This document shows, one piece after another, positions 1 through 8,249 of a DNA stretch of 11,940 bases. The translations under genes and the position numbers were made by a program. Under the pieces are notes generated by a model. It did no database searches and was not told the origin of the DNA. It was given only the letters and a program-made list of their open reading frames with translations. Numbering within the stretch: position 1 is the stretch's first letter; each line of letters starts with the position of its first letter. The stretch is taken from the IMG/VR virus record IMGVR_UViG_2703718835_000003; one strand, 5' to 3'. The stretch comes from a virus. Its lineage: Duplodnaviria > Heunggongvirae > Uroviricota > Caudoviricetes.

Positions 1-315
1 CGCAATGTTAATATTCGTTCTATTACAGATGGCGTTGACCTGAGCACTGCCAGTGGGCGCTATAACTTCCGTAATATTCTCTCTGCGGCACAATATGAGT
101 CTGATCTGAGTAGTGAACGCACTCTGGCAGGGTTAGCGGTTGCCCGCGCTAAGGGGAGGATTGGCGGACGTAAGCCTAAGTATACTGATGAGCACTGGGA
201 TGCGTTTGAACGGGAAATTAAGTCCGGCTGCTCACATCGTGATATAGCTCTCAAATATGGGGTCGGCCTGTCGACTCTCTACAAACGTTATCCGGCTCAG
301 CAAGAGCATCACTAA
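1..315 (+). CDS. DNA invertase (serine recombinase, Hin/Gin/Pin family), C-terminal portion; 5' end lies outside the window
   Basis: Frame-1 translation from position 1 reads ...SGRYNFRNILSAAQYESDLSSERTLAGLAVARAKGRIGGRKPKYTDEHWDAFEREIKSGCSHRDIALKYGVGLSTLYKRYPAQQEHH, stop TAA at 313-315. The ERTLAGLAxARAxGRxGGR motif and C-terminal HTH (GVGLSTLYKRY) match the Hin/Gin family as I recall it. Position next to tail genes fits a tail-fibre inversion system. Confidence 0.85.
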   Translation, partial: RNVNIRSITDGVDLSTASGRYNFRNILSAAQYESDLSSERTLAGLAVARAKGRIGGRKPKYTDEHWDAFEREIKSGCSHRDIALKYGVGLSTLYKRYPAQQEHH

Positions 316-2598: not shown

Positions 2599-2732
2599 CG
2601 GTTGATGATCTGGTGGCAGATATTGCCACCATCTTTCACTGGTCGCCGTCCATCACTGACGTTATGCCGCTGACTGATGTGCTGGAGTGGCGGCATAAGG
2701 CAATTCAGAGAAGCGGGGCCAGCGATGAGTGA
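2296..2732 (+). CDS. gpE+E' fusion produced by -1 frameshift at 2553-2559 (tail assembly chaperone, long form)
   Basis: After the slip the -1 frame reads VAEVGACRFADNLTVDDLVADIATIFHWSPSITDVMPLTDVLEWRHKAIQRSGASDE, stop TGA at 2730-2732, overlapping the T start codon. This arrangement is conserved in P2 and in the lambda G/GT analogues (established knowledge). Confidence 0.7.
2553..2559 (+). other. Slippery heptamer T_TTT_TTG for programmed -1 ribosomal frameshift in E
   Basis: In the E frame the codons are ACT TTT TTG (2551-2559); a run of six T then G gives the X_XXY_YYZ pattern. The -1 frame is open from here to 2732. Confidence 0.7.
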
Positions 2733-5502
2733 TAATAACCTGCGACTGCAGGTAGTTCTGGGGGCGGTGGATAAGTTAACCCGCCCATTTAAAAATGCAC
2801 AGGCTGGCTCTAAGGAGCTGGCATCAGCTATTCGACAAACCCGCGATCAGATTAAAAAGCTGAGTGATGCTGGAGGTCAGCTTAAATCTTTCGATCAGCT
2901 AACTCAAAGTGTTAGCCGTACTGGTGCCGAACTGGATCAGGCGAGGCTACGCGCTCAAATGATGACGCGCGAAATGTCTTCTTTGGAATCCCCGACAAAA
3001 AAACAAACGCAGGCGCTTGAAGCTCAGTGGCGTGCTGTTTCACGTCTTGAACAAAAACAGCAACAGGAAACTCGCCAGATGGCGGCAGCCAGGGCTGAGC
3101 TTTATCGGCTGGGGTTATCTGCTGGGGGCGGAGCGCGTGAGACGGCACGGATTGCACAAGAAACTGAGCGGTATAACCGACAGTTGGCTGAGCAGGAGCG
3201 CAGGCTGCGTGAAGTTGGCGAGCGTCAGCGAAAGCTCAACGCCATCAAAGCCAAGGCTGAAAAGACCCGCGAGTTAAGGAACTCTCTGGCAGGTAATGGT
3301 GCAGGGGCGATGGCGGCTGGGGTAACTACTGGCATGACGTTGCTGGCTCCAGTAAAAGCCTATTCAGAATCAGAAAATGCAGCGAATCAGCTCGCCGGTT
3401 CAATGATGGGGCCGGGCGGAAAGGTAGCGCCTGAATTTGAAAAAATTAACCGGCTTGCAGTTGCTTTGGGCGATAAGCTGCCGGGAACAACAGCCGACTT
3501 TCAGAACATGATGACTATGCTACGCCGTCAGGGTATGTCGGCGCAGGTCATCCTGGGCGGCTTGGGAGAGTCAGCAGCTTATCTTGGCGTGCAGTTACAG
3601 ATGGCTCCCACTGCAGCAGCTGAGTTTGCGGCTAAGTTACAAGATGCTACCCAGACCTCCGAAAAAGACATGATGAATCTGATGGACGTGATCCAGAAAG
3701 GATTCTACGCAGGGGTAGATTCAGGAAATATGCTGCAGGGGTTCTCAAAAATCAGCAGTGCGATGGATATTATTCATAAAAAGGGATTGGACGCGGCTAA
3801 GACATTTGCTCCTCTATTAGTTATGGCTGATCAGGCTGGTATGGCTGGAGAGTCAGCTGGTAATGCCTACCGAAAAGTATTTCAGTCCGTCATGAATACG
3901 GAAAAAGTGAAGGATGCTAATGATGAACTAAAAGGCACCGGTGTTAAGTTCGATTTTACGGATGGCAAGGGGGAGTTTGGCGGGCTGGAGAAAATGTACA
4001 CGCAGTTAGCTCAACTCCAAAAGCTTAATACTGAGAAAAGGTTAGCTACTCTAAAAGGTATTTTTGGGGATGATGCGGAAACGCTGCAGGTGCTAAATAT
4101 TATGATTACCAAAGGCATCTCAGGGTATCGAGAAACGGCTTCAAAGCTACAAAATCAGGCTTCTCTGCGCGAGCGTGTTGATGCCTCCTTGAATACTCTT
4201 GGTAATAAATGGGAAGCCGCTACAGGTTCCTTTACCAATGCTATGGCTAGTATCGGTGAAACAGTCGCCCCTGCATTAAAGAAGCTGGCTGACTGGTTGG
4301 GTGAACTGGCTTCGCGTCTGGATGGTTTTGTTAAACGACACCCACAATTGACCTCTGCGCTGTTTAAGCTGGCAGCTGGCTTTGCGATTGTTGCTACCGC
4401 CGCTGGGGTTGTTTCACTGGCGCTGGCGTCCGTGTTAGGACCGATGGCAGTAGTGCGAATGAGCGCAGGGGTGATGGGGCTAAAATTTTCATCTGCATTT
4501 GGTCTTATTGGGAAAGCAATCAGTTCTGTTGGCAAGTCAGTTATATGGCTGGGCCGATTGATGTTTGCAAATCCTATACTGGCTGTCATTGGGTTGATCG
4601 CCGCTGGTGCTATTTATATCTGGCAGAATTGGGACACGCTTGGGCCAAAGTTCAAGGCCATGTGGGATGCCGTATGTAATGCCACAGGTACGGCATGGGA
4701 TTGGATTAAAGAAAAGGCCAGCGCCGCATGGGAGGGGATTAAATCACTGTTCTTTAATTATACCTTGCCGGGATTAATAGCTAAAAATTGGGATGCAATA
4801 AAATCTGGCGTTTCTGAGGCGTGGGCTAATATCAGGCAATCTATTAGTGATAAATGGAATTCGATCTTGGCTGATGTTGCCGCGCTTCCTGCGAAGTTTC
4901 AGGACATGGGCAGCGCCATTATTGACAGTATTCTTAATGGAATTAATGCCAAATGGGAGACACTAAAAAGCAAGCTTTCCTCAGTCACCGATTATCTGCC
5001 TGACTGGATGACCGGAAATAATAAAACACAAGGCAAAGCACAGGTGCAGGTGGTTGGTGGAGCAGCGGCTGCTGCGGTTCCGTTTGCTGGCATGTATGAC
5101 AGCGGTGGCACGATCCCGCGTGGTCAGTTTGGCATCGTTGGGGAGAACGGCCCCGAAATAGTGAACGGTCCCGCAAATGTGACCAGCAGACGGCGCACTG
5201 CTGCGCTGGCTTCCGTCGTTGCAGGCGTTATGGGCGTAGCGGCAGCGCCTGCAGAGGCTGCTCCACTACATCCTTACAGTCTGCCTACTGTGGCATATAA
5301 ACAAAGCCAGCCAGCGAAATCAGCCAGCGCGCCGCCTGTGATGCACTTTGAAACTCACGCGCCGATCACTATCTATGCTCAGCCAGGGCAAAGTGCGCAG
5401 GATATTGCCCGTGAAGTGGCGCGGCAGCTCGACGAGCGTGAACGCAGGGCCAGGGCTAAAGCACGCAGTAATTTCAGCGATCAAGGGGGATATGAATCAT
5501 GA
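2725..5502 (+). CDS. T: Tail tape measure protein (P2 gpT homolog)
   Basis: Long ORF with a coiled-coil-like, Q/E/R/A-rich N-terminal region, central hydrophobic segments (LAAGFAIVATAAGVVSLALASVLGPMAVV; ILAVIGLIAAGAIYIW) and an Ala/Gly-rich C-terminus. Start chosen at ATG 2725 (MSDNNLRLQVV...), which overlaps the E' stop; the ORF-track start at 2677 is an alternative. Confidence 0.9.
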   Translation: MSDNNLRLQVVLGAVDKLTRPFKNAQAGSKELASAIRQTRDQIKKLSDAGGQLKSFDQLTQSVSRTGAELDQARLRAQMMTREMSSLESPTKKQTQALEAQWRAVSRLEQKQQQETRQMAAARAELYRLGLSAGGGARETARIAQETERYNRQLAEQERRLREVGERQRKLNAIKAKAEKTRELRNSLAGNGAGAMAAGVTTGMTLLAPVKAYSESENAANQLAGSMMGPGGKVAPEFEKINRLAVALGDKLPGTTADFQNMMTMLRRQGMSAQVILGGLGESAAYLGVQLQMAPTAAAEFAAKLQDATQTSEKDMMNLMDVIQKGFYAGVDSGNMLQGFSKISSAMDIIHKKGLDAAKTFAPLLVMADQAGMAGESAGNAYRKVFQSVMNTEKVKDANDELKGTGVKFDFTDGKGEFGGLEKMYTQLAQLQKLNTEKRLATLKGIFGDDAETLQVLNIMITKGISGYRETASKLQNQASLRERVDASLNTLGNKWEAATGSFTNAMASIGETVAPALKKLADWLGELASRLDGFVKRHPQLTSALFKLAAGFAIVATAAGVVSLALASVLGPMAVVRMSAGVMGLKFSSAFGLIGKAISSVGKSVIWLGRLMFANPILAVIGLIAAGAIYIWQNWDTLGPKFKAMWDAVCNATGTAWDWIKEKASAAWEGIKSLFFNYTLPGLIAKNWDAIKSGVSEAWANIRQSISDKWNSILADVAALPAKFQDMGSAIIDSILNGINAKWETLKSKLSSVTDYLPDWMTGNNKTQGKAQVQVVGGAAAAAVPFAGMYDSGGTIPRGQFGIVGENGPEIVNGPANVTSRRRTAALASVVAGVMGVAAAPAEAAPLHPYSLPTVAYKQSQPAKSASAPPVMHFETHAPITIYAQPGQSAQDIAREVARQLDERERRARAKARSNFSDQGGYES

Positions 5503-5984
5503 TGATGGTGCTGGGGTTATATGTCTTCATGTTGCGTACAGTGCCATATCAGGAGCTGCAGTATCAGCGCAGCTGGCGACACGCTGCGAACAACCGGGTG
5601 AACCGTCGTCCGTCAACGCAGTTCCTTGGGCCGGATAATGACTCGCTCACGTTATCTGGCGTACTGCTGCCGGAAGTCACCGGCGGCAGGCTGTCATTGC
5701 TGGCGCTGGAGTTGATGGCGGAGCAGGGAAAAGCCTGGCCTCTGATTGAAGGAAGTGGAACCATTTACGGTATGTTTGTGATTGAAAGTCTGAGCCAGAC
5801 CAAAACGGAGTTTTTTGCAAGCGGCATGCCTCGACGCATTGAGTTTACGATTACCCTCAAACGGGTTGATGAGTCGCTGTCTGACTTGTTCGGGAGCCTG
5901 AGTGACCAGCTGAGCAACCTGCAGGATTCTGCAGCCTCTGCAGTTGGGGGAATTAAAAACACAGTTGGAGGGTTGCTGCAGTGA
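5499..5984 (+). CDS. U: Tail protein gpU homolog
   Basis: 161-aa ORF whose ATG (5499-5501) overlaps the T stop codon (ATGA), indicating translational coupling; the position matches P2 gene U. Confidence 0.9.
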   Translation: MMMVLGLYVFMLRTVPYQELQYQRSWRHAANNRVNRRPSTQFLGPDNDSLTLSGVLLPEVTGGRLSLLALELMAEQGKAWPLIEGSGTIYGMFVIESLSQTKTEFFASGMPRRIEFTITLKRVDESLSDLFGSLSDQLSNLQDSAASAVGGIKNTVGGLLQ

Positions 5985-7081
5985 ATTTTAATTCTGATCT
6001 CCTGAACCTTAACAGCAAAAGCCCGGCTTTCAGTATCACCATTGAAGGTAAGGACGTGACTGCCGCGCTGGATGCGCGTCTGATGAGTCTGACGCTCACC
6101 GATAACCGGGGTTTTGAAGCGGACCAGCTTGATCTGGAGCTGGACGACGCCGACGGGCAGATCGTTCTGCCGCGACGTGGTGCCGTTATTCAGCTGGCGC
6201 TGGGATGGAAGGGCCAGCCGCTTTTCCCAAAAGGGGCCTTTACCGTGGATGAGATTGAGCACAGCGGTGCTCCTGATCGTCTGACTATCCGTGCCCGTAG
6301 CGCTGATTTCCGTGAAACCCTCAATACCCGGCGCGAAAAGTCATGGCACAAGACAACCGTTGGCGATGTGGTAAAGGAAATCGCCGCGCGTCATAACCTC
6401 AAAATGGCGCTGGGTAAAGACCTGACGGACAAAGCGCTGGATCACATGGACCAGACAAATGAAAGCGATGCCAGTTTCCTGATGAAGCTGGCGCGCCAGT
6501 ACGGCGCGATTGCTTCCGTTAAGGATGGAAACCTGTTGTTTATCAGGCAGGGGCAGGGAAAAACGGCGAGCGGTAAGCCGCTGCCGGTAATCACCATTGA
6601 GCGTAAGGCTGGTGACGGTCATCGTTTTACCCTGGCTGATCGTGGTGCCTATACCGGCGTTATTGCCAGCTGGCTGCATACCCGTGAACCAAAGAAAAAA
6701 GAAACAACCAGAGTTAAGCGCCGTCGGAAGAAAACCACCACACCCAAAGAGCCGGAAGCAAAACAGGGTGATTATCTGGTAGGAACGGATGAAAATGTGC
6801 TGGTTCTTAACCGCACTTACGCAAATCGCAGCAATGCTGAGCGTGCGGCAAAAATGCAATGGGAGCGTCTGCAGCGTGGTGTTGCGTCATTCTCCCTGCA
6901 GCTCGCAGAGGGCCGGGCAGATCTCTACACCGAAATGCCAGTAAAGGTAAGCGGCTTTAAGTTGCCTATCGACGATGCCGAATGGACCATTACAACTTTG
7001 ACGCATACGGTCAGCCCGGATAATGGTTTCACTACCAGCTTGGAGCTAGAAGTAAAGATTGATGATATAGAAATAGAATAA
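5981..7081 (+). CDS. D: Late tail protein gpD homolog
   Basis: 366-aa ORF with GTG start overlapping the U stop (GTGA at 5981-5984). Position directly before ogr matches P2 gene D; contains a basic linker KKKETTRVKRRRKKTTTPKEPEAK. Confidence 0.9.
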   Translation: MNFNSDLLNLNSKSPAFSITIEGKDVTAALDARLMSLTLTDNRGFEADQLDLELDDADGQIVLPRRGAVIQLALGWKGQPLFPKGAFTVDEIEHSGAPDRLTIRARSADFRETLNTRREKSWHKTTVGDVVKEIAARHNLKMALGKDLTDKALDHMDQTNESDASFLMKLARQYGAIASVKDGNLLFIRQGQGKTASGKPLPVITIERKAGDGHRFTLADRGAYTGVIASWLHTREPKKKETTRVKRRRKKTTTPKEPEAKQGDYLVGTDENVLVLNRTYANRSNAERAAKMQWERLQRGVASFSLQLAEGRADLYTEMPVKVSGFKLPIDDAEWTITTLTHTVSPDNGFTTSLELEVKIDDIEIE

Positions 7082-7148: not shown

Positions 7149-7367
7149 ATGATGAATTGTCCAAAGTGTGGGCACTCAGCGCACACTAGGAGCAGCTTTC
7201 AGGTCACTGATAGCACAAAAGAACGTTACTGCCAGTGTCAGAATATCAATTGCGGTAGCACCTTTGTCACTCATGAAACAGTAGTGCGGTTTATCGTTAC
7301 GCCAGCCATAGTAAATAACGCTCCTCCTCATCCAGCAGCAGGCGGACAAGGGCACATGAATTTTTGA
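7149..7367 (+). CDS. ogr: Ogr-type zinc-finger late transcription activator
   Basis: 72-aa product MMNCPKCGHSAHTRSSFQVTDSTKERYCQCQNINC... with C-x2-C-x22-C-x4-C spacing (Cys 4, 7, 30, 35), matching P2 Ogr. RBS GGAGAAA at 7135-7141. The ORF-track start at 7104 lacks a comparable RBS and would add 15 residues. Confidence 0.9.
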   Translation: MMNCPKCGHSAHTRSSFQVTDSTKERYCQCQNINCGSTFVTHETVVRFIVTPAIVNNAPPHPAAGGQGHMNF

Positions 7368-7380
7368 AGAGTCTTTATCG

Positions 7381-7399
7381 CCATTTGGCTTACAAATGG
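7381..7399. terminator. Candidate hairpin between convergent ogr and cargo gene (CCATTTG / GCTTA loop / CAAATGG)
   Basis: Perfect 7-bp AT-rich stem between the 3' ends of two convergent genes; no clear U tract on either strand, so terminator function is uncertain. Confidence 0.3.
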
Positions 7400-7406
7400 A
7401 GTGTCA

Positions 7407-7790
7407 TTAGAACTGAGTAGCGTTTTCGATGATATTGGCTTTATAGGCTTTCTCTTGTTCAAAAGTCATAGAGCCACTTTTCTTACACTCATTCCCGCCA
7501 GCATCAATTTTGTAACCTTGATCGCGTGTGACGTTCAGAAGCGTGACCCTTTTTATTGTCTCCGGCTTCCATTTATTCATGAAATAGTCATTACATATCC
7601 AGTCAAACATGGCGGTAGCCATATTCTGCGTCACTTTTGAACGGTCATATCTGACAGTGAGTTCACCATTTTTAAGACTATGCTCACGAGCATTTGTGCC
7701 AGCAATGACATTCTCAATCGAAACCGGAATCTTGTCTGCATAGGAGCTGGCGCTGGTAAGAAGTAATAAGGCAATTAGAGATTTTTTCAC
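7407..7790 (-). CDS. Hypothetical secreted/periplasmic protein with Sec-type signal peptide (prophage cargo gene, unknown function)
   Basis: 127-aa ORF with GTG start at 7790 preceded by AAAGGGA 8 nt upstream on the minus strand. N-terminus MKKSLIALLLLTSASSYA|DK is a classic signal peptide with an A-x-A-like cleavage site and no lipobox cysteine. The mature part has two Cys. Visibly more AT-rich than the flanking tail genes (not computed). I do not recognise the family. Confidence 0.7.
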   Translation of the reverse strand: MKKSLIALLLLTSASSYADKIPVSIENVIAGTNAREHSLKNGELTVRYDRSKVTQNMATAMFDWICNDYFMNKWKPETIKRVTLLNVTRDQGYKIDAGGNECKKSGSMTFEQEKAYKANIIENATQF

Positions 7791-7842
7791 GTCGGTAGTC
7801 CCTTTAATGGATAAATGTCTGTCGCCATTTTGCCGCCACTAC

Positions 7843-7876
7843 TAAATAAAAAGGGGCTACGTTTTCACGTAACCCC
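7843..7876 (-). terminator. Rho-independent terminator downstream of ssrA
   Basis: On the minus strand: GGGGUUACG / loop UGAAAA / CGUAGCCCC (9-bp stem, one G.U pair) followed by UUUUUAUUU. Stem at 7853-7876, U tract at 7843-7852. Confidence 0.8.
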
Positions 7877-7886
7877 TTGTTTTGTT

Positions 7887-8249
7887 TGGTGGAGCTGGCG
7901 GGAGTTGAACCCGCGTCCGAAATTCCTACATCCTCGGTACTACATGCTTAGTCAGTCTTTACATTCGCTTGCCAGCTGCGGACGGACACGCCACTAACAA
8001 ACTAGCCTGATTAAGTTTTAACGCTTCAACCCCAGGCAGGGCTTCCACGCGATCTCTTTTGGGTTTGACCTCTCTTGATCCCCGTCCTAAGAGCGGAGGC
8101 TAGGGAGAGAGGGCTCTAAGCAGGTTATTAAGCTGCTAAAGCGTAGTTTTCGTCGTTTGCGACTATTTTTTGCGGCTTTTTACGAGGCCAACCGCCCCTC
8201 GGCATGCACCTTGGGTTTCGCAAATCCCGTCGAATCCAGAATCAGCCCC
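7887..8249 (-). ncRNA. ssrA: tmRNA (transfer-messenger RNA, SsrA), 363 nt
   Basis: The reverse complement begins GGGGCTGATTCTGGATTCGACGGG (5' end at 8249) and ends GGGTTCAACTCCCGCCAGCTCCACCA (3' end at 7887). The tag reading frame GCA AAC GAC GAA AAC TAC GCT TTA GCA GCT TAA (ANDENYALAA) is intact at 8128-8160. Confidence 0.97.

Follow-up and report, generated by a model that had tools for sequence, protein, structure and literature searches.

The DNA analysed here (the window) is a stretch of 11,940 nucleotides from a member of the Caudoviricetes, IMG/VR record IMGVR_UViG_2703718835_000003, in which the right end of a P2-family prophage meets an Escherichia coli chromosome. Our subject is an open reading frame (ORF) of 127 codons at positions 7407-7790 on the minus strand, hereafter the cargo ORF, which starts with GTG at 7788-7790 and stops at 7407-7409. 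It is flanked by an ogr/delta-type late activator gene (7149-7367, plus strand; PF04606 Ogr_Delta, 4.9e-20, and the RefSeq annotation of the 98.5% identical locus of E. coli ET650), with which it is convergent, and by an intact ssrA gene for transfer-messenger RNA (tmRNA; 7887-8249, minus strand, tag ANDENYALAA), on whose strand it lies 96 nt downstream. Since the D protein (gpD) encoded in the window is 94.8% identical to gpD of Fels-2, we assign the prophage to the Fels-2-like (Felsduovirus-type) group of the P2 family. The prophage of ET650, which also sits at ssrA, is 98.5% identical to it. A Shine-Dalgarno-like AAAGGGA (7799-7805, minus strand) is found 8 nt 5' of the GTG by direct reading of the sequence, and AAAGGA is kept at the same place in homologs that start with ATG. 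The 127-residue frame opposite to the tail operon, its GTG and its ribosome-binding site with 8-nt spacing had all been described in the initial annotation and are present in the sequence, as is the lower G+C content it had pointed to: 41.1% in the cargo ORF (43.8% at third codon positions) vs 51-59% in the tail genes FI, FII, E, T, U and D.

Among homologous loci in IMG/VR, the ORF was intact with the same start position in 35 of 35, the start codon being GTG in the clade of the window and ATG in other clades. The median ratio of nonsynonymous to synonymous substitution rates (dN/dS) was 0.12, with a range of 0.08 to 0.20, for 70 pairs drawn from 26 distinct nucleotide sequences, the pairs kept having 0.1 < dS < 2.5 and being described as at saturating dS. 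This strong purifying selection and the intact frames exclude a chance ORF or a decaying remnant. Disruption or missing coding constraint among homologs had been named beforehand as the sign of a non-functional frame, and neither was seen. We consider it highly probable that the cargo ORF encodes a real, exported accessory protein of the prophage.

The predicted product begins with a signal peptide, MKKSLIALLLLTSASSYA (residues 1-18; 7737-7790, minus strand), made of an n-region (MKK), an 11-residue hydrophobic core (SLIALLLLTSA) and the sequence SYA/D at -3/-1. Cleavage by signal peptidase I (SPase I) is predicted after SYA, the site having been placed by a rule-based script using the -3/-1 rule and by family conservation. 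When 48 members of the protein family were aligned, 44 were signal-like, with small residues at -3/-1 of the aligned site, and one was lipobox-like. No lipobox was found in the cargo protein itself, nor was a second hydrophobic segment (maximum 19-residue hydropathy of the mature part, 0.26). By these rule-based measures, the protein has every hallmark of a soluble protein exported through Sec and SPase I, namely the n-region charge, the h-region, the -3/-1 residues, the missing lipobox and the lack of any further transmembrane segment. The remaining 109 residues (7410-7736, minus strand; 12.5 kDa, isoelectric point 8.6) form an alpha/beta domain with two conserved cysteines. Thus, hydropathy, the -3/-1 rule and family conservation bear out the earlier description of a Sec signal peptide cleaved after SYA, without lipobox and with two cysteines in the mature part. 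We infer that in the periplasm of the lysogen the cargo protein would be exported, cleaved and disulfide-bonded.

An AlphaFold2 model based on 14 homologs had a mean predicted local distance difference test score (pLDDT) of 84.7. The score exceeded 90 over the mature domain and was about 50 in the signal peptide (<55 for residues 1-20). The predicted topology is alpha-beta-beta-alpha-beta-beta-alpha-alpha. In the 48 aligned members, Cys66 is conserved in all and Cys102 in 46, while L44 and N86 are each found in 45; W74, Q91 and G92 are also common. A Foldseek search of the PDB with the predicted domain gave no match below an E value of 0.05, and neither shallow nor deep-profile sequence searches of the PDB gave any match. 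The BFVD structure search returned family members only, among them orf1 of Serratia phage KSP20, and structural matches beyond the family were generic two-layer alpha/beta domains. The structure thus offers no functional lead. Because conserved catalytic-looking residues are absent, the modelled domain looks like that of a binding-type protein stabilised by one disulfide.

The gene had been called an orphan, which proved wrong in the ORFan sense. The cargo protein matched the profile of PHROG 3807 with an E value of 8.3e-29 (residues 1-120 on positions 4-128 of 135), as did all 48 aligned relatives, and the family recurs from Burkholderia to the Enterobacterales and is common in prophages of Salmonella and Klebsiella. 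PHROG 3807 is annotated as 'unknown function'. A profile search of 1.84 billion representatives yielded 58 clusters at 50% identity, nearly all of 120-140 residues, and members were still recognised at about 20% identity, both cysteines being conserved. The exact protein was found in 206 public contigs, mostly of Salmonella enterica and all labelled 'hypothetical protein'; its 90% cluster also takes in E. coli, Enterobacter and Citrobacter. Only one of 5426 complete E. coli genomes carried the gene. At the level of the family, members are common in Salmonella enterica and in clinical lineages of Klebsiella pneumoniae, and the range extends over P2-like phages of Klebsiella, Serratia, Yersinia, Salmonella and Burkholderia. 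Every context examined was a phage, mostly P2-like, the short metagenomic contigs L056, L058 and L059 being uninformative in this respect. A scan of GTDB representative genomes gave no locus. Pfam and NCBIfam scans of the cargo protein and the 48 relatives gave nothing above noise and no member is named; the RefSeq accession of the cargo protein is not mentioned in the literature, and neither the paper on phage KS14 nor that on S. Typhi (PMC2704369) contains anything specific on PHROG 3807.

Members such as KS14 gp9, FSL SP-004 gp27, P37 gp16, KSP20 orf1 (a homolog at an hhalign probability of 99.2%) and Klebsiella prophage proteins share with the cargo protein its length, signal peptide and two cysteines, and their genes occupy the same slot by gpD/ogr, convergent with the tail operon. 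They differ in start codon and integration site: the clade of the window uses GTG and integrates at ssrA, whereas the other members use ATG and are found at tRNA-Met or P2-type sites. Hidden family membership was also tested for several neighbouring proteins, and was rejected for the protein that takes the place of the cargo protein in an enterotoxigenic E. coli (ETEC) prophage, for a 123-residue neighbour in Gibbsiella and for the neighbours of members P0033, P0026 and P0045. A 138-residue neighbour in Serratia was the sole one among those tested that proved to be a paralog.

The DNA around the cargo ORF allowed us to define its insertion point. The attachment (att) core of 46 bp (attR copy, 7886-7931) lies over the last 45 nt of ssrA and is an exact direct repeat of the int-proximal end in ET650. 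Since this repeat defines the prophage ends, the DNA from the core up to the GTG, 95 nt in length, belongs to the phage. These nucleotides include the ssrA terminator hairpin (7851-7878, minus strand), a 12-bp stem followed by TTTTTATTT, recognised by a terminator scan (leader fold z = -2.5). The phage provides this hairpin as well as the final 45 nt of ssrA itself, which makes the functional tmRNA gene of the lysogen a host/phage hybrid. Inspection of the plus strand showed that the same hairpin is followed by GTTTTGTTT in that direction, and it may thus also stop late transcripts of the ogr/F operon. Between the hairpin and the ORF is the tandem repeat TGGCGGC-AAAA-TGGCGAC (7821-7838, minus strand), which is kept in Fels-2 and in the ETEC prophage and has a second copy beside int in ET650 (L051, 9690-9707, minus strand), so that TGGCGGC-N4-TGGCG(A/G)C flanks both copies of the att core. 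Because its position matches the annotated integrase (Int) arm site of P2, we read this repeat as probably an Int arm-type binding site on the ogr-side arm of attP. In relatives that integrate at tRNA-Met the repeat reads TGGCAGC-AAAA-TGGCAGC, and this suggests that the integrases are related but have switched core specificity. On the other side of the cargo ORF, 39 nt separate the two convergent stop codons (7368-7406) and contain a weak, AU-rich hairpin of 7 bp (7381-7399) whose fold was not significant (z -0.35 and -0.41); the terminator scan found no convincing terminator between ogr and the cargo ORF. P2, Fels-2 and P37, unlike the window, have a strong hairpin directly after ogr.

In a three-way alignment of the window, Fels-2 and an ETEC sister prophage that also occupies ssrA (E. 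coli L3_E36_ETEC, NZ_LR882997), the sequences were identical rightwards from about 7818 and fully diverged leftwards. This sharp junction pins the cargo slot down to a single position, with ogr on one side and the arm site on the other, and leaves only about 27 nt of leader to the cargo. In P2, as stated in the initial annotation, the interval is short; it is without a gene: ogr stops at 24254 and the attP core begins at 24356, and the roughly 100 bp between them hold a terminator, the Int P-arm site and a site for integration host factor. No gene is found in the corresponding interval of Fels-2 either, where att and ogr are about 115 bp apart and the sequence left of the junction runs into the ogr terminator. 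The ETEC sister prophage has at this junction, in the same orientation, a gene for a 160-residue BRCT protein (L002, 3395-3877; phrog_2561, 2e-66), which is cytoplasmic and unrelated to the cargo protein. The slot is thus variable in content, being empty in P2 and Fels-2 and otherwise filled in the ETEC prophage. The cargo ORF has the properties of a moron-type dispensable insertion, since close relatives lack it at a sharply defined junction and its composition is atypical. The ogr-to-Int-arm interval thereby becomes a third, precisely defined cargo slot of P2-like prophages. Published work has described the gpA-Q and Z/fun hotspots of P2-like phages as defence reservoirs (PMC9122126). The iLund4u preprint (10.1101/2024.10.15.618418) likewise documents defence cargo at gpA-Q and adds a third, broad 'tail protein to CI' hotspot, which is all that covers the ogr-attP slot.

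We also compared the positions of the relatives. The first is the arrangement of the window, gpD/ogr followed by a convergent member and then att, which was seen in Peduoviridae prophages that Klebsiella carries at ssrA and at a tRNA-Met gene, as well as in Serratia phage KSP20, Burkholderia phage KS14 (gp9), Salmonella phage FSL SP-004 (gp27) and Yersinia phage P37 (gp16). For FSL SP-004 and P37, whose genomes are virion-derived, the gene order on the strand of the member is C, int, attP and the member. When virion-derived genomes were aligned with P2, their Int arm repeats and hairpin proved to be those of P2, and the member to be an addition between the hairpin and ogr. In a second position, the member follows directly on the repressor gene and has the same orientation, as in 186-like prophages of Serratia and Gibbsiella (CI, in some cases a paralog, then the member) and in the P2-like locus L057, where the repressor gene is followed by a 74-residue ORF and then by a member convergent with gpD. 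In Serratia liquefaciens CP033893 (L045, 6567-7625), CI is followed by two tandem, diverged PHROG 3807 paralogs and a 66-residue Cys-rich secreted YdcA-like protein (phrog_6000), apparently a three-gene block of exported proteins in the lysogenic operon. The third position is the gpA-Q interval, which holds old/tin in P2: member P0020 (L043, 5549-7415) lies there beside a YafO-family toxin and a 206-residue protein, a group that may be a toxin-antitoxin or defence cassette. Overall, the family is nearly always found in the gpD/ogr-attP-int-repressor interval and on the strand of the repressor. A position and orientation compatible with lysogenic conversion, as first proposed, thus holds for the family, with members on the repressor/int strand and some of them in repressor operons.

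How the gene is expressed is less clear-cut. Of the proposal that it has its own ribosome-binding site and is expressed from the prophage, half was borne out: the ribosome-binding site is present, but no promoter was recognisable and there is hardly any room for one. A tool scan of the cargo leader found no sigma-70-like promoter. With our own position weight matrix, the best score in the leader was 6.9, a value equalled by 148 of 500 shuffled sequences, the ssrA promoter used as control scoring 9.4. No Ogr-type late element (TGT-N12-ACA) was found near or upstream of the ORF, and neither a terminator scan nor fold z-scores revealed a terminator after it. In all loci with upstream DNA, the gene begins 95-96 nt past ssrA or 127 nt past tRNA-Met and is always co-oriented with the RNA gene. 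This constant distance from a stable-RNA gene makes expression by read-through conceivable. A universal read-through from ssrA was weakened by locus L070 (1-5000; CP063956.1, Salmonella-type context), in which a P4-like satellite (AlpA, Ash, derepression protein, primase) stands in tandem directly upstream of attR. There, the satellite takes the place of ssrA upstream, and all that lies between it and the constant cargo leader is some 16 nt from the 3' end of ssrA, so read-through from ssrA cannot be universal. Helper prophage and satellite share the ssrA site in this strain. Since no terminator follows ogr, late transcripts would probably run antisense across the cargo ORF up to the att-proximal hairpin, and such transcription would favour expression in lysogeny over lytic growth.

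The function that we rank first for the cargo protein is superinfection exclusion, with a rough probability of 0.38. The cargo ORF would be an accessory ('moron') gene of the Fels-2-like prophage at ssrA, inserted between ogr and the Int arm site, and the lysogen would export its product and process it in the periplasm by cleavage and disulfide bonding. The protein would probably act there by binding or blocking, and would hinder genome delivery by incoming, probably P2-like, phages. We favour this function mainly because of an analogy with Glo of Vibrio phage K139, which is periplasmic and involved in phage exclusion according to Nesper et al. (1999), as cited in PMC4870250. The annotation of NC_003313 likewise gives Glo as periplasmic and acting in phage exclusion, and places it in the operon cI-orf2-glo-int. 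Like the cargo protein, Glo belongs to a P2-like temperate phage and combines a Sec signal peptide with a mature part of about 13 kDa. Its gene lies in the int/repressor-side lysogeny region, as do the Serratia and L057 relatives of the cargo gene, and the K139 orf2 product, whose gene precedes glo, is a BRCT protein with weak similarity to the BRCT slot-mate of the ETEC prophage. The two genes differ in that glo is upstream of int whereas the cargo gene is across attP from int.

Several results limit how far this proposal can be taken. Homology to Glo was tested and rejected, as the hhalign probability was 12.8%, the BLASTP E value was 5 and the signal peptides alone aligned; with Glo non-homologous, the comparison bears on the working mode and not on family membership. 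The PADLOC-DB v2 defence models gave 0 matches for the cargo protein and its 48 relatives. This result and the low dN/dS hold exclusion at the level of a leading guess.

The genetic setting of the cargo ORF recalls old, tin and Z/fun of P2, which are also non-essential, placed in fixed slots, atypical in composition and variably present between close relatives; P0020 even occupies the old/tin slot. Published hotspot screens have dealt with defence systems of the cytoplasm, where Old, Tin and Fun act too, whereas the cargo protein is predicted to be exported. Small phage envelope proteins that block the entry of superinfecting genomes include Spackle (Sp) of T4, Llp of T5, Cor of phi80 and Ltp of TP-J34, among which Llp, Cor and Ltp are lipoproteins and Spackle comes from a lytic phage. 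They share with the cargo protein the proposed mode of action. In no search did they show sequence or fold similarity to it, and the cargo family is without lipobox.

Second to exclusion, the cargo protein could be an orphan periplasmic immunity or inhibitor protein directed against a bacteriocin, a type VI secretion system (T6SS) amidase or muramidase effector or a host lysozyme, thereby giving the lysogen a competitive or in-host advantage. Its small size, Sec export, predicted disulfide and want of catalytic-looking conserved residues would suit such a role, the tandem diverged paralogs of Serratia resemble immunity-gene arrays, and the gene is carried as mobile cargo. Among the structural matches of the predicted domain, none was a known periplasmic inhibitor or immunity fold (Ivy, MliC/PliC, PliG, colicin M immunity, T6SS immunity, T4 Spackle). 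We regard this role as unlikely. The same word applies to the third-ranked explanation, a host-interaction or envelope-fitness factor that alters envelope physiology, stress resistance or colonisation and leaves phages unaffected. The frequency of the family in S. enterica and in clinical K. pneumoniae would agree with it, and the same type of prophage bears surface-modifying cargo, the gtrABC-like genes of ET650. In addition, low-GC cargo of silent prophages is typically transcribed in lysogens, as seen by strand-specific RNA sequencing of S. Typhi (PMC2704369), a paper that does not cover the cargo gene itself. However, the family also occurs in environmental phages of Burkholderia, Serratia and Gibbsiella and is thus not tied to animal pathogens, and profile scans of the cargo protein gave no similarity to any known virulence factor.

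A role in the phage's own lytic cycle is less probable still. The protein would then be expressed on induction, either as a periplasmic modulator of lysis timing or as an 'anti-Kronos' factor sparing progeny from lysing cells. Once the phage genome is circular, C/CI-int and attP stand upstream of the gene, so that its transcription might begin immediately after infection or excision, and the linkage of the gene to the end of the tail genes is conserved across Peduoviridae. On the other hand, it is oriented opposite to all late operons, has no TGT-N12-ACA element and stands outside the lysis cassette, and late ogr/F transcripts, with no terminator after ogr, would run through it in antisense. 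Moreover, the family is absent from most Peduoviridae, being found in a few dozen records compared with 528 phage records for gpD. Finally, a mis-called or non-functional frame in the att-proximal spacer, to which the missing promoter, the GTG start in the clade of the window and the lack of an annotated function anywhere might point, is effectively refuted by the selection analysis, and the conserved start position and ribosome-binding site, the ATG of other clades, the confident predicted fold and a family that keeps both cysteines down to about 20% identity argue against it as well.

An extended form of the exclusion proposal would make PHROG 3807 a Peduoviridae-wide periplasmic protein with a new fold that blocks genome entry, its gene being promoterless in the ssrA and tRNA lineages and switched on by integration through tmRNA or tRNA read-through across the phage terminator and attR. 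If so, the cargo gene would be an integration-wired lysogenic-conversion gene. We give this combination long odds.

In sum, the picture first drawn for the locus stood in part: a selected stand-alone accessory gene of the prophage, with the hallmarks of a soluble Sec-exported protein and a lysogeny-linked position, was found, but the gene is no ORFan and no promoter of its own was recognisable. As the gene is already catalogued (PHROG 3807; 'hypothetical protein' in RefSeq) and widespread, the find itself is not surprising: an ordinary 'hypothetical prophage cargo gene', if a well-supported one. Its value is that of a defined candidate: a conserved exported family with an unassigned fold, an attP-adjacent slot that is now mapped and a presence in repressor operons. 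P2-like prophages rank with the commonest of the Enterobacterales, and many groups' searches for new defence systems have drawn on their cargo hotspots with success; those screens were centred on the gpA-Q and Z/fun slots and, within them, on cytoplasmic systems. Should exclusion at the level of the envelope prove true, the family would bring a new periplasmic mechanism and a new fold to prophage-encoded immunity, and would bear on phage typing as well as on phage therapy where a Salmonella or Klebsiella lineage carries it. With another function, it would still be among the more widespread uncharacterised secreted proteins of P2-like prophages.

The remainder of the window contains the rest of the right end of a P2-family prophage. 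On the plus strand we identified FI (sheath, 349-1716), FII (tube, 1726-2241), E (2296-2598), T (tape measure, 2677-5502), U (5499-5984; PF06995, 4e-45) and D (5981-7081; PF05954, 7e-25). Past ssrA, the sequence is ordinary E. coli chromosome with smpB, ratA, yfjF, bamE and recN, and Rfam found the tmRNA and no further RNA family in the window. Upstream of FI, the window begins within a gene for a serine recombinase/DNA invertase (Pfam Resolvase, 2e-7; HTH_7, 2e-6), whose 3' end it contains at positions 1-315 (plus strand). This position at the start of the window corresponds to the Z/fun cargo slot, where the ET650 prophage has a gtrABC-like O-antigen modification module.
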